This document shows positions 3,806-61,968 of a stretch of DNA of 64,000 nucleotides, one piece after another (the stretch's first letter is position 1; every line of letters starts with the position of its first letter). The translations under genes were made by a program, and so were the position numbers. Below the pieces are notes generated by a model. That model was not told the origin of the DNA. It did not search any database and worked only from the letters and a program-made list of their open reading frames with translations. This DNA comes from a virus (lineage: Duplodnaviria; Heunggongvirae; Uroviricota; Caudoviricetes): the IMG/VR virus record IMGVR_UViG_2718218172_000010, one strand, 5' to 3'.

Positions 3806-3909
3806 ACCACCATCTTATGAACACAACTCATAATCTCAAACTGATATAGGTATTGATCATTTAAATTAATATAGTTAATATTTTGACAGGCATTACTAAG
3901 GTGACCCTT
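3806..3909. promoter_or_regulatory. immunity-region divergent promoter/operator region
   Basis: 104-bp AT-rich gap between divergent repressor and Cro-like genes; TTGACA at about 3885. Confidence 0.4.
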
Positions 3910-4668: not shown

Positions 4669-5799
4669 ATGGCTTCAAACTGGATAAAGCTCGAGGTTAT
4701 TACGCCGGATAAGCCGGAAATATTCAGGCTTGCTGAGATTCTGAATATTGATCCAGATGCCGCATTAGGGAAGGTTATTCGCTTCTGGGCATGGGCGGAT
4801 CAACAAATGATAGACGGTAATGCAGATTGTAACGCTCGCGGCGTTACAAAAAGTGCAATAGATCGCATCACTTTTATGGCTGGTTTTGCTGATGCGTTAA
4901 TTCAGGTTGGATGGCTGGTCGAAAATGACGGTGGGCTTTCTCTACCTAACTTTGAACGTCATAACGGGAAAAGCTCTAAAAAACGGGCGGTTACAAACGA
5001 GCGAGTTACAAAAATACGCGAACTGAAACGAAAGGGTAACGCTGCCAGCGTTACACAAACGGATCAAAAAGCGTTACCAGAGGAAGAGGAAGAGGAAGAT
5101 ATAAATACTGATCTAACCCATCCCAAACCCTTCCCTTCCGGAAGGGAGTTCCGGGATTTTGTGGCTGGAGTGCTTGAGGGGAGATTATCTGGCGGTACTG
5201 CAGCGGAATTTTGTAATTCTGCGGTGGTTGCGTTGCAGGCTGCTGGCCTGGATGTCTGTCGTGAGTATCCGGTGCCAGAGCGTGGTGACGGCTGCGGAGG
5301 GCGGATTGATATCGTCGTGACTGACAGGAACGGTGTCCGGTGTGGGATCGAGCTTGACCGAAATTCTCCGCGACAGAAATCACTGCTCAAAATCGGTGCT
5401 GTTGAAACCGGGATATGTGTCTTGCGGCGCAGTGATATCGCAAGGCACACCGAGCAGGGAATTCTGGTTATCGGTGGGGCTGTTCGCCAGAAAAAATTTG
5501 ACCCGTTGTCTGTTGATCTGCCCGACTGGTTGCCGGAAACACTCTGGCATGAGTGGGTCCGGTTCAGACAGGCATTGCGAAAACCGATTCGAACGGAGCA
5601 GGGCGCTAACGGGGCGATACGGGAACTGGAAAAATTCCGTCAGCAGGGTTTTACACCTGAGCAGGTGATTCGACACAGCATCGCCAATGAATACCAGGGC
5701 CTGTTCGCGCCGAAAGGTGTTCGGCCAGAGACGTTGCTCCGACAGATTAACACCGTCTCGTTTCCGGACAGTGCGATCCCGCCAGGCTTCAGGGGGTAA
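4669..5799 (+). CDS. replication initiation / replisome organizer protein (O-like)
   Basis: 376 aa immediately upstream of DnaC-like loader; MASNWIKLEV... N-terminus. Confidence 0.55.
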   Translation: MASNWIKLEVITPDKPEIFRLAEILNIDPDAALGKVIRFWAWADQQMIDGNADCNARGVTKSAIDRITFMAGFADALIQVGWLVENDGGLSLPNFERHNGKSSKKRAVTNERVTKIRELKRKGNAASVTQTDQKALPEEEEEEDINTDLTHPKPFPSGREFRDFVAGVLEGRLSGGTAAEFCNSAVVALQAAGLDVCREYPVPERGDGCGGRIDIVVTDRNGVRCGIELDRNSPRQKSLLKIGAVETGICVLRRSDIARHTEQGILVIGGAVRQKKFDPLSVDLPDWLPETLWHEWVRFRQALRKPIRTEQGANGAIRELEKFRQQGFTPEQVIRHSIANEYQGLFAPKGVRPETLLRQINTVSFPDSAIPPGFRG

Positions 5800-39089: not shown

Positions 39090-39189
39090 NNNNNNNNNNN
39101 NNNNNNNNNNNNNNNNNNNNNNNNNNNNNNNNNNNNNNNNNNNNNNNNNNNNNNNNNNNNNNNNNNNNNNNNNNNNNNNNNNNNNNNNN
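39090..39189. other. assembly gap (100 N)
   Basis: Exactly 100 consecutive N. Confidence 0.95.
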
Positions 39190-52029: not shown

Positions 52030-52180
52030 ATGTGTATAGCAATGCTTAACGAAAACACTTGTAGAAGTGTTTATGAAAATACGTGTATGTCTGGTAAAAC
52101 ACTTAGTAGAAAATACGTGTATAACACTTACTGAAATGCTTAGTAAAAATACTTAGTAAAATACGTGTATATAGTATCAT
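52030..52180. repeat. cluster of short direct and inverted repeats
   Basis: AAAATACGTGTAT three times, CTTAGTA three times, palindrome AACACTTGTAGAAGTGTT. Confidence 0.45.
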
Positions 52181-54000: not shown

Positions 54001-54885
54001 ATGTCATTCAGCCATTCTTCCCTCTCCGCACAAGTGAAATCATATCTGACGTTTCTTCCTGAAGAAATTCGCCAGAAAATCCTTGAACATCTCCACGGTG
54101 TTATTCATTACGAACCCGTGATTGGCATGATGGGTAAAAGCGGCACCGGCAAAAGCAGTCTGTGTAATGCCATTTTTCAGTCCCGTATCTGTGCCACGCA
54201 TCCCCTGAACGGCTGCACCCGCCAGGCTCATCGTCTTACCCTGCAGCTCGGTGAACGCAGAATGACGCTGGTCGATCTGCCCGGCATTGGTGAAACACCG
54301 CAGCATGATCAGGAATACCGAGCGCTTTATCGTCAGTTACTGCCGGAACTGGATCTGATTATCTGGATCCTGCGGAGTGATGAACGTGCGTATGCTGCCG
54401 ATATTGCCATGCATCAGTTTTTACTGAATGAGGGCGCAGATCCCTCGCGCTTTCTGTTTGTTCTCAGCCATGCCGATCGCATGTTTCCTGCTGAAGAATG
54501 GAATGCCACAGAAAAATGCCCGTCCCGTCACCAGGAACTCTCACTGGCGACAGTAACAGCCCGGGTGGCCACCCTGTTCCCTTCATCATTTCCGGTACTC
54601 CCTGTAGCCGCACCTGCAGGCTGGAACCTTCCAGCGCTGGTGTCACTGATGATCCACGCGCTGCCACCACAGGCAACCAGCGCAGTTTATTCACATATCA
54701 GGGGGGAAAACCGCTCTGAACAGGCCCGGAAACACGCACAACAGACTTTTGGTGATGCCATCGGGAAAAGTTTTGACGACGCCGTTGCCCGGTTCAGTTT
54801 TCCGGCCTGGATGTTACAGCTTCTGCGTAAAGCCCGGGACCGCATTATCCACCTGCTGATCACACTGTGGGAGCGTCTGTTCTGA
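54001..54885 (+). CDS. YfjP/YkfA/YeeP-family GTPase
   Basis: G1 GMMGKSGTGKSSLCN, G3 LVDLPGIGET; 294 aa. Confidence 0.75.
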   Translation: MSFSHSSLSAQVKSYLTFLPEEIRQKILEHLHGVIHYEPVIGMMGKSGTGKSSLCNAIFQSRICATHPLNGCTRQAHRLTLQLGERRMTLVDLPGIGETPQHDQEYRALYRQLLPELDLIIWILRSDERAYAADIAMHQFLLNEGADPSRFLFVLSHADRMFPAEEWNATEKCPSRHQELSLATVTARVATLFPSSFPVLPVAAPAGWNLPALVSLMIHALPPQATSAVYSHIRGENRSEQARKHAQQTFGDAIGKSFDDAVARFSFPAWMLQLLRKARDRIIHLLITLWERLF

Positions 54886-55087: not shown

Positions 55088-55768
55088 ATGTCTGATAATC
55101 GTTCCCGGCATGATCGCCTGGCGGTTCGCTTATCACTCATTATCAGCCGACTGATGGCCGGAGAATCTCTGTCACTAAAAACACTGTCAGATGAATTTGG
55201 CGTTACAGAACGTACTTTACAGCGCGATTTTCATCAGCGTCTGGTTCACCTGGATTTAGAGTACAGAAATGGCAGGTACAGCCTCAGACGACAGAGCAGC
55301 CCGGGTGCGATCCCTGAAATGCTTTCTTTTATACAGAATACCGGGATCGCACGGATACTTCCGCTCCGGAACGGACGACTGATAACCTGTCTTACCGACA
55401 ACCAGGAGCCCTCTCCCTGCCTTATCTGGCTACCGGCGCCGGATATCACTGCAACGTTCCCCGAGTGTTTCTCGCAACTCATCCTGGCAATAAGACAGTG
55501 TATCCACATATCTCTGATGACTGAGCGATGGTATCCGTCACTGGAACCCTGCCGGCTCATTTATTACAGCGGAAGCTGGTATCTGATCGCGTTACAGAAG
55601 GGAAAACTGCGGGTCTTTCCCCTGGCAGACATCAAATCGGTCAGCCTGACATCAGAACGGTTTGAACGGAGAGACCACATCCACAGTCTGGTCGCTGAAG
55701 AGCGTTTTATCTCCGCTCTGCCACATTTCCCTTTCATCCATAAACTTATCAACACCTTTAACCTGTGA
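55088..55768 (+). CDS. YfjR-like transcriptional regulator
   Basis: N-terminal HTH LKTLSDEFGVTERTLQRDF; follows GTPase as in CP4-57. Confidence 0.55.
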   Translation: MSDNRSRHDRLAVRLSLIISRLMAGESLSLKTLSDEFGVTERTLQRDFHQRLVHLDLEYRNGRYSLRRQSSPGAIPEMLSFIQNTGIARILPLRNGRLITCLTDNQEPSPCLIWLPAPDITATFPECFSQLILAIRQCIHISLMTERWYPSLEPCRLIYYSGSWYLIALQKGKLRVFPLADIKSVSLTSERFERRDHIHSLVAEERFISALPHFPFIHKLINTFNL

Positions 55769-55988: not shown

Positions 55989-56189
55989 ATGAATGCACGA
56001 AAAGCGGTACTGGCAGACAATCCGGAATTGATCCTGCGTGTGCTACAGCTGAGATTTGACGAGTCACTGTCGTACCCGCGCATTTCTGCGCAGACCGGTG
56101 TCAGCAAAACCGCCATTTTTTCTCTGGTGAGGCGATTTCACCAGGTATTCACTGACTGGCCTCTTTCCGGTGAATATTCCTGCGGGCAA
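55989..56189 (+). CDS. hypothetical protein, truncated by gap
   Basis: ATG with AAGGGA SD; ORF runs into N-run. Confidence 0.35.
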
Positions 56190-56289
56190 NNNNNNNNNNN
56201 NNNNNNNNNNNNNNNNNNNNNNNNNNNNNNNNNNNNNNNNNNNNNNNNNNNNNNNNNNNNNNNNNNNNNNNNNNNNNNNNNNNNNNNNN
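56190..56289. other. assembly gap (100 N)
   Basis: Exactly 100 consecutive N. Confidence 0.95.
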
Positions 56290-56520
56290 GTTCATGCTAC
56301 TGCTACTGTTCTTCTTTTTTCTGCTGCTCTGATTACTGTCTGTTTTGTTGTTCTCCTGCTTATGCCTTTTCCGGGCGTCCCCCTGGCGGGGCGGGCTGTC
56401 GTGAACGGAGCCAGCGGAGCTGTCTCCGCCCTGGCGGGCTTCCATCCCTGACGCGAAACCCCGGGCTTGCAGCGACCGTTCCGGTCGCGCCGCCTCTGTC
56501 GCGCCGTGGCCTGCGCTCCC
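56290..56520 (+). repeat. leading-region repeated element, copy 1 (5' end lost in gap)
   Basis: About 200 bp nearly identical to 61700-61915, including hairpin GCGACCG-TTC-CGGTCGC. Confidence 0.55.
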
Positions 56521-56927
56521 GGCATCCCGGCAAAAGGCCGCCGGGATGTGAGGGGCAACGCCGTTTCGCAAACCGCGCTTCACGTCGTTGCGGCGGGTCC
56601 CTGCCCGTTGTTGTGTCCGGTGCCATTCACCTGTTTAAGCCCCTGTCGCCGGGGGCTGATACAGCCACAACCGTCTCCGCCAGTCCAGGGGTGAAATGTA
56701 CATCCCGCAAAACTTTTTGCCCAAAAGCAGGCAAAAACTTTTGCGGTCTGCCCCCGGACAGTCGTTTCCGGCCGTGGCAGTGATGCCCCTTGCGGCGAAG
56801 GTTCTCAAAAAGGTGATGGTGAATACCGGAGGGAACAAAAGGCAGGTCCCCGCAAAACGTCAAAACCGCGGCTCCCGAAACTCAAAAGATGATGGGGGCT
56901 GAAAACATCAACAGAAGGAGATACATC

Positions 56928-57762
<835 letters not shown>

Positions 57763-61453: not shown

Positions 61454-61689
61454 CAGGGCTGATGCTGGTCTGACTGCACTGAAGCGCCTTTATAAAGGGG
61501 CTGCTGGTTCGCCGGTAGCCCCTTTCTCCTTGCTGGCATTGTACGGGCATGAACAACCAGACTGCCAGGAAGGCCGTTTCCCTCCGGGAACGGGGATGAA
61601 CGTGCGCATGCGGCGCCCGTTCTTTTCCCCCGCCTTCTCTGTTTATGACCTGTCAGAAATCACATCACCTTCCCTTTGATTATTTTCTT

Positions 61690-61960
61690 TTTCCTCCTGT
61701 TCTGACTCTGATTACTGCTGCCCTGATTATTGTCTGTTTTGTTGTTCTCCTGCTTATGCCTTTTCCGGGCGTCCCCCTGGCGGGGCGGGCTGTCGTGAAC
61801 GGAGCCAGCGAAGCTGTCTCCGCCCTGGCGGGCTTCCATCCCTGACGCGAAACCCCGGGTTTGCAGCGACCGGAACGGTCGCGCCACCCTTGTCGCGCTG
61901 TGGCCTGCGGCGGCTCCCGAAACTCAACCGATGATGGGGGCTGAAAACCAGAGAGAGGAG
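61690..61960 (+). repeat. leading-region repeated element, copy 2
   Basis: Near-identical to 56330-56520 plus shared leader CGGCTCCCGAAACTCAA..GATGATGGGGGCTGAAAAC before the next gene. Confidence 0.55.
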
Positions 61961-61968
61961 AAAGCAGG

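Follow-up and report, generated by a model that had tools for sequence, protein, structure and literature searches.

The analyses presented here indicate that the 64,000-nucleotide (nt) stretch IMGVR_UViG_2718218172_000010 (IMG/VR; at its full length, the window) very probably carries two Frpo units of an F-like plasmid, one of which has lost its hairpin. Unit 1 (56313-56927), located before the plasmid ssb gene, is complete and comprises an upstream flank, a long hairpin and a leader. Unit 2 (61707-61968), located before ygeA and ygeB, would be the Frpo1 site after deletion of the 352-bp hairpin at imperfect 9-10-bp direct repeats. The flank shared by both units contains a four-helix cloverleaf whose conservation reaches much further than that of the hairpins. 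The original prediction, made from the letters of the window alone, had described a repeated element upstream of ssb with a structured insert in the first copy, and had proposed that it acted as a single-strand promoter or single-strand initiation (ssi) element. Its description of the parts was recovered almost entirely, while their roles had to be revised. The system is a known one that had been correctly observed; as far as checked, the natural deletion of the Frpo1 hairpin alone and the cross-phylum motif in the shared flank are new. Our confidence in the identity of the parts is high.

Positions 56313-56515 aligned with 61707-61909 as a gapless direct repeat of 203 nt and 93% identity, where the prediction had given about 200 bp; a BLAST search within the window (E 3e-85) found no third copy in the 64 kb. 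A common leader precedes the next start codon in both copies, as had been noticed (56868-56906 and 61910-61948; 39 nt, 95% identity). Past this leader, the copies split into separate Shine-Dalgarno regions that lead to starts at 56928 (ssb) and 61969 (a 95-aa ygeA homologue). The extra segment of copy 1, estimated at about 350 bp, spans 352 bp (56516-56867). Its near-perfect 15-nt inverted repeat (arms 56707-56721 and 56730-56744, 14 of 15 positions complementary) turned out to be the mere tip of an imperfect hairpin of about 320 nt, in which 56563 is paired with 56881. The left edge originally given to the element, 56290, is not a biological boundary, as it is set artificially by the end of a run of 100 N (56190-56289). 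This run and a second one of exactly 100 N (39090-39189) are either scaffold gaps or masked stretches. The former parts the N-terminal portion of an IS66-type TnpA-like open reading frame (ORF; 55989-56189) from the Frpo unit, so that the contiguity of the two sides is uncertain. In close relatives, a methyltransferase operon sits where the window has the IS66-type fragment and the 100-N run.

Comparison with the F plasmid identified the extra segment. It was 96.9% identical to the hairpin of F Frpo1 and 88.7% identical to that of Frpo2, and it aligned with ssi1-3 of ColIb-P9 and with F ssiD (D90178), which Samuel et al. list as a known Frpo/ssi. F ssiD corresponds to the minus strand of the segment plus part of the leader (about 56536-56898 in the window). 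Because of this identity with Frpo1 and ssiD, the 352-bp "insert" is the Frpo element described by Masai and Arai, now known as class 1 single-stranded DNA (ssDNA) promoter or ssp1. The prediction was therefore right in pointing to this IncF leading-region system, but it had reversed the parts, since ssiD/Frpo is the 352-bp segment with the leader and not the shared 200 bp. Both F sites, Frpo2 before ssb and Frpo1 before ygeA, carry the 203-nt left module, a segment of about 352 nt and the leader. F and most relatives possess the hairpin at both positions, and the idea that the segment had been inserted into copy 1 did not hold; copy 2 is a deletion derivative. The ssb-proximal hairpin of the window is of the F Frpo1 type rather than the Frpo2 type, which suggests a gene conversion or exchange between units in a lineage that lost the ygeA-proximal hairpin.

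The gene content agreed with this assignment. The plus strand encodes ssb (179 aa, 56928-57467; the first gene served by unit 1), a DUF905 gene (yfjA), a ParB-like gene (yfjB/herB), psiB, psiA, hok/sok (Rfam sok match, 92.6 bits), the ygeA homologue (61969-62256) and the DUF932 gene ygeB, which ends at 63195. This gene order corresponds to that of the F leading region. Between hok and ygeA, window and F are collinear and almost identical, save for the absent hairpin. More than 5,000 PLSDB plasmids matched the region, chiefly from Escherichia, Klebsiella, Salmonella and Shigella. Since the leading genes are directed toward oriT, from which the transferred strand enters with its 5′ end first, the minus strand is both the transferred strand and the template. 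Unit 1 lies upstream of the leading genes on the plus strand and is co-oriented with them, toward ygeA, ygeB and the oriT side.

Folding of the single-stranded sequence, proposed originally as a check, revealed a stable hairpin, the lack of which would have spoken against the original proposal. The minus strand of 56290-56930 folded at -161.7 kcal/mol (z -6.8), 12.8 kcal/mol more stably than the plus strand (-148.9). The main stem-loop of the transferred strand occupies 56563-56881 on the minus strand, with its apex loop at 56722-56729. Eight G:T pairs of the stem ladder correspond to A:C mismatches on the opposite strand. A small hairpin A (CATCCCGG...CCGGGATG, 56523-56548, minus strand) lies at the foot of the main hairpin. 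We then aligned nine hairpins (the window, F Frpo1, F Frpo2, ColIb-P9 ssi1-3, a Serratia element and two insect-metagenome elements). Sixteen of the 44 consensus pairs showed compensatory changes, and 94.8% of the cells were paired compared with 44-48% when the partners were slid by 1-3 columns. Hence, compensatory changes have kept the pairing intact in IncF, IncI and other plasmids. A consensus scan of the duplex sequence found no sigma-70 promoter on either of its strands, as expected if the promoter exists solely in the folded single strand.

Published work on F provides the functional side of this reading. There, Frpo1 (ssp1a) and Frpo2 (ssp1b) have been classed as class 1 ssDNA promoters, ygeA, ssb and yfjA depend on them for early expression, and the elements support RNA polymerase-dependent transcription and priming, for which the single-stranded form is required. 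By homology with F Frpo/ssiD, the minus strand of unit 1 would fold on entry into the long imperfect hairpin and mimic duplex promoter DNA, and host RNA polymerase would transcribe ssb-yfjA-yfjB-psiB-psiA ahead of complementary-strand synthesis. The transcript of the ssb operon could also prime the complementary strand, whose synthesis would in turn remove the hairpin and switch the promoter off. The shared 203 nt form a separate upstream module, which lies 3′ of the hairpin on the transferred strand and includes small covarying hairpins and the cloverleaf. The latter may be an accessory structure on the transferred strand, for example one that serves a conserved host factor as a docking or insulating structure.

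The absence of the hairpin from unit 2 could be traced to a single junction, in which GTGGCCTGCG is joined to GCGGCTCCCGAAACTC (61909/61910). In complete units, the segment is bracketed by imperfect 9-10-bp direct repeats, GCGCTCCCG on the left (56513-56521 in unit 1) and GCGGCTCCCG on the right (56868-56877). Direct repeats flanking a palindrome favour slipped-strand deletion. The junction retains three extra bases, indicating that the deletion event was not simple. When a 40-nt junction probe was used to search PLSDB, 109 plasmids were recovered, all from E. coli and nearly identical. A probe for the intact hairpin-ygeA arrangement, which had to match the hairpin end together with the ygeA leader, was covered to 80% or more in 2,720 PLSDB records, which is an upper bound as some of the rows at 80% coverage are other arrangements; ranking gave an estimate of about 2,300 intact records. 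The left-flank allele of copy 2, characterised by a flipped hairpin B loop and a few substitutions, was present in 1,374 further records and also adjoins an intact hairpin, as it does before ssb in pT224A.

The same bracketing repeats resemble a target-site duplication, and different hairpin types are found beside the same cloverleaf module in different plasmid groups. Both features would fit the insertion of a small, mobile palindromic element into unit 1, copy 2 being the ancestral empty site. This alternative is very improbable. The hairpin is present at the ygeA site in F and in up to 2,720 PLSDB records (about 2,300 by ranking), against the 109 that are without it, and the left-flank allele of copy 2 is also found with an intact hairpin. 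Moreover, in distant relatives (ColIb-P9, Serratia and the insect metagenome) the hairpin still adjoins this flank; a clean excision would not have left the three extra junction bases, nor would a clean empty site contain them. We also considered an artefact of assembly or sequencing, as long palindromes can collapse and the window is draft sequence that contains two 100-N runs. It is scarcely credible, since the identical junction occurs in 109 finished plasmid records of varied size and source, one of which is 100% identical to the window across unit 1. Judged from these sequence comparisons, copy 2 is a derived deletion allele of Frpo1, neither an empty site nor an artefact.

We predict, with moderate confidence, that unit 2 is no longer an ssDNA promoter. 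Lacking the hairpin, it consists of the flank and the leader alone, the latter with a ygeA-specific Shine-Dalgarno region (61910-61968, plus strand), and copy 2 by itself folded no better than shuffled sequence (z -1.5). In F, Couturier et al. deleted the Frpo1 unit and found that early YgeA expression was abolished and that the frequency of transconjugants decreased from ~93% to ~25% (about four-fold). Their oligonucleotides (OL476/OL477 and OL473/OL474) removed the whole Frpo unit of ~600 bp, including left module, hairpin and leader. As these engineered deletions took both parts together, the natural allele, in a 109-plasmid lineage that lost just the Frpo1 hairpin, separates hairpin from flank, two parts that experiments had removed jointly.

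The small ORF that had been seen to read through each copy was present in both, where frames are open on both strands. The plus-strand ORFs span 56170-56451 and 61645-61845, a minus-strand ORF starting at 56445 is annotated as a 118-aa product in F, and a 68-aa ORF inside the hairpin (56696-56902) has been annotated by PGAP/RefSeq. Such open frames and RefSeq hypothetical proteins could mean that the repeat owes its persistence to a small protein that it encodes. We consider this highly improbable. Every frame is broken by 1-nt indels in the F Frpo1, F Frpo2, Enterobacter and Klebsiella grimontii homologues while nucleotide blocks stay invariant, lengths change in steps other than triplets, paired positions covary, and a Pfam search of the small ORFs gave no matches. 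On this comparative evidence, the small ORFs are not conserved as protein, and the outcome that could have overturned the original proposal, an ORF conserved as protein, was not observed.

What the shared flank does conserve is structure. The left module (56313-56515 and 61707-61909, minus strand; 65% G+C in copy 1) was compared with homologues of ~85% identity from Raoultella, Enterobacter and K. grimontii, which revealed nucleotide-invariant blocks and small hairpin stems that change by compensation (GACCG/CGGTC, CTCCG/CGGAG, ATCCT/AGGAT and AGCCG/CGGCT). Among them, the stem of small hairpin B (GCGACCG-TTC-CGGTCGC; 56472-56488, minus strand) covaries in these homologues. Its counterpart in copy 2 (61866-61882, minus strand), a common IncFII allele, carries the loop as its reverse complement (GGAAC vs GTTCC). 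This flip bears the mark of a template switch inside a quasi-palindrome and was found in ~1,480 plasmids. Upstream of unit 1, a pyrimidine-rich tract (56290-56360, plus strand; purine-rich on the transferred strand) differs in length and sequence among plasmids.

The most conserved part of the ssDNA-promoter units is a cloverleaf of ~95 nt on the minus strand, at 56365-56459 in copy 1 and 61759-61853 in copy 2 (89.5 and 89.8 bits, respectively, with the covariance model R1, which was built from an alignment of 33 sequences made with MAFFT). Four helices, P0-P3, enclose the invariant stretches GGGATGGAA and GGCTCCGTTCACGACAGCC; the reverse complement of GGCTCCGTTCACGACAGCC lies at 56394-56412. 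The order of the parts is closing helix P0, AGGGATGGAA, P1, GGAGAC-variable hairpin-GGCTCC (P2), GTTCACGACAGCC, P3 and the return strand of P0. In the MAFFT alignment, compensatory changes affected 11 of the 21 pairs, with 84.8% of the cells paired compared with 36-52% in slid controls. The model-fitted alignment of the matches gave 16 of 21 and 91% compared with 38-48%, figures that lean toward the model itself, whereas the MAFFT alignment is independent of it. As the cloverleaf changes in length by steps other than multiples of three, it is not coding. Since wobble counts were uninformative as to the strand, we compared folding energies, and the transferred-strand orientation was the more stable one in 26 of the 33 sequences (by 2.2 kcal/mol on average; Wilcoxon p 6e-6).

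Unexpectedly, the cloverleaf extended far beyond Enterobacterales. A scan of one genome per species for the exact 19-mer GGCTCCGTTCACGACAGCC (transferred-strand orientation) yielded 59 loci, mostly from outside this order (Bradyrhizobium, Hyphomicrobium, Stappia, Rhodovulum, Devosia, Methylocapsa, Isosphaeraceae, Singulisphaera, Fimbriiglobus and Wenzhouxiangella), and the larger pattern surrounded the 19-mer in nearly all of them. Model R1 gave 80 matches in 64 sources, often several per contig and on the same strand; about 6 of the 80 (24-29 bits) appear to be the 19-mer occurring by chance. The window held exactly two copies, the examined 16-kb stretch of F also two and a close relative three. 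In addition, a 90-nt Bradyrhizobium copy used as BLAST query matched 3,937 PLSDB plasmids, including some from Yersinia, Burkholderia and Methylocystis. Some taxonomic labels call for caution. Sequences labelled Streptomyces morookaense, Oscillibacter, Collinsella, Oscillospiraceae and Ferruginibacter (loci L022, L062, L015, L029, L041 and L055) were identical or nearly identical to enterobacterial IncF Frpo flanks and probably reflect contamination or mis-binning, and the labels of the Selenomonas and Veillonellaceae metagenome-assembled genomes (MAGs) are uncertain.

In Alphaproteobacteria, Planctomycetes and Enterobacterales alike, the cloverleaf was always upstream of, and antisense to, the next gene. 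The downstream genes encoded ArdC (two confirmed by Pfam and two more by obvious similarity), ParB-like proteins (two), ArdA and a ResIII/DEAD helicase; in Erwinia (L020) the next gene was ssb, and in the window the two copies preceded ssb and ygeA. The same module was paired with different hairpin types in different plasmid groups. No Rfam 15 family matched the cloverleaf in the window (E<=5), in 16 other loci (gathering score) or in the Rhodovulum MAG locus L034 (E<=10). A full-text literature search with the invariant sequences returned nothing relevant, and the recent ssDNA-promoter papers that we searched do not describe the cloverleaf.

Several observations were made in the surroundings of these copies. 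In a close relative (L002, NZ_CP031548.1), a third copy at 3814-3908 lies upstream of a DUF3560/methyltransferase operon, a leading-region segment that is absent from, or displaced in, the window. In the Stappia, Tropicimonas and Rhodovulum loci (L019, L027 and L034), the gap between ardC and the cloverleaf holds a transferred-strand hairpin of ~120 nt with a conserved CTTGACGG at the end of its 3′ arm; two small GC hairpins come next, and the arrangement may be an alphaproteobacterial counterpart of an ssDNA promoter. Inside the long hairpin between cloverleaf and ardC of the Rhodovulum MAG, positions 5626-5685 (minus strand) gave a sub-threshold Rfam match to Whalefall-1 RNA (21.1 bits, gathering score 37, E 0.004), and this orphan motif may belong to such a leading-region hairpin.

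Regarding its role, the cloverleaf is probably not the promoter itself but an accessory element of ssDNA-promoter units; for any specific function our confidence is low. Its invariant unpaired bases suggest recognition by a conserved factor. Four candidate functions were considered. A sigma-70 promoter or open-complex mimic was rejected as the main reading, since the cloverleaf has no consistently placed -10/-35-like hexamers, the ssiD fragment is devoid of it and the published cassette functions in its absence. A primase or primosome site is unlikely, given that there is no conserved CTG start motif and that the element is absent from the listed F ssi signals; besides, early complementary-strand initiation near ssp1 is rifampicin-sensitive in F, which speaks against a primase site. 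A replication roadblock is unlikely too, the F roadblock having been mapped to ssp2. Finally, as for a parS-like site for HerB/ParB (YfjB), published chromatin immunoprecipitation sequencing data revealed no HerB enrichment on F, and the GTTCACG of the cloverleaf resembles just half a parS site.

The cloverleaf or the whole left module could instead act as RNA, either as a terminator or insulator that ends transcripts of the upstream operon or as a small antisense RNA. The covariation is equally compatible with an RNA, wobble counts do not discriminate the strands, and in many loci a coding-strand pyrimidine-rich tract precedes the module, where a C/U-rich tract could load Rho; an insulator before each ssDNA promoter would also make functional sense. 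We regard this possibility as rather unlikely. In 26 of 33 sequences it is the antisense, transferred-strand orientation that folds more stably, no promoter-like site for an antisense RNA was found within the unit, a plain terminator needs no 19 invariant unpaired bases across phyla, and no Rfam family matched. An ssDNA role on the transferred strand seems more likely than an RNA role. More tentatively, the four-helix element may be a hitherto unrecognised functional ssDNA element, no less ancient or widespread than conjugative leading regions, that marks ssDNA-promoter units before anti-defence and establishment operons in Enterobacterales, Alphaproteobacteria and Planctomycetes and is read by a universally conserved host factor; we hold this to be possible, with the odds against it. 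If true, the hairpin-less allele would be a natural separation-of-function mutant that keeps the cloverleaf without the promoter hairpin.

Some points weigh against the interpretation of two Frpo units with an accessory ssDNA cloverleaf. The promoter activity of unit 1 is extrapolated from its ~97% identity to the F element, and the -35/-10 candidates are weak (7-8 of 12 positions across the nine aligned homologues), none being common to F-type and ColIb-type copies. The 3′ arm offers TGGACT-N18-TGTATC, a weak match with bulged bases and a TATCAG hexamer 2 nt further on, and the 5′ arm offers another weak candidate, TTGAGA-N17-CATCAC; the published Frpo2 cassette has boundaries that favour the former, yet its spacing is poor (18-20 nt, depending on the hexamer). 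As for unit 2, read-through from unit 1 or another start could still express ygeA and ygeB. For the cloverleaf, the difference in stability between strands is small (~2 kcal/mol), and the wobble counts on the MAFFT alignment (26 G:T vs 28 A:C) fail to discriminate the folding strand. The replication roadblock reported in F is due to ssp2 and not to the ssp1 units. In addition, an Frpo2-acrIIA4 cassette without the left module or the lower stem, placed by Samuel et al. in the leading region of an Frpo2-deleted F plasmid, still gave ~225-fold protection. From this published result, neither the left module nor the cloverleaf within it seems to be required for Frpo2 output when E. coli is mated in the laboratory.

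Other features of the window lie at the margins of this region. Directly after ygeB, 63192-63246 forms a 27-nt inverted repeat (93% complementary, 1-nt loop) that is probably a terminator; the oligonucleotide OL514 of Couturier et al. covers its F counterpart. Just left of the IS66-type fragment, a GTPase-like ORF (54001-54885, MMR_HSR1/dynamin-type) and a WYL-HTH regulator (55088-55768) are atypical of leading regions and may represent a defence-type or cargo module that adjoins a truncated leading region. Further upstream, 52045-52170 contains, within AT-rich sequence, a 44-nt direct repeat (82-nt spacing, 70% identity), which could correspond to iterons or binding sites.

Frpo-type promoters matter because they allow anti-SOS and anti-restriction genes to be expressed within minutes of entry and, in this way, affect the spread of resistance plasmids. 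If functional, the cloverleaf would provide a marker of sequence and structure for leading regions and early anti-defence genes where a BLAST search with Frpo finds nothing, and it would point to a shared host interaction.

The system described here is closest to the class 1 promoters F Frpo/ssiD and ColIb-P9 ssi1-3, with which it shares the position before ssb and ygeA, the strand logic and the leader. With F Frpo, it also has in common a long imperfect stem-loop on the transferred strand and a hairpin identity of 89-97%; it differs in that the ssb-proximal hairpin is of the Frpo1 type and the ygeA-proximal unit has none. In the minus-strand origin of M13/f1, an ssDNA hairpin likewise mimics a promoter that host RNA polymerase uses, and the product acts as primer. 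This likeness is one of mechanism; the phage origin makes a short primer only and drives no gene expression. STAXI and other Rfam motifs are conserved structures located by ssb, antirestriction and mobile-element genes that are suspected to act as ssDNA. In contrast to the repeated pseudoknots of STAXI, the cloverleaf is a four-helix junction, and neither STAXI nor another Rfam 15 family matched it in the window or in the 17 other loci searched. Lastly, comparison of the IncI plasmids pO111-CRL115 and pO26-CRL125 has revealed that Frpo repeats can serve as rearrangement substrates, with removal of leading-region DNA. In that case, a 9.7-kb module between the repeats was lost, whereas in the window only the 352-bp palindrome within one repeat is missing and all the genes have been kept.

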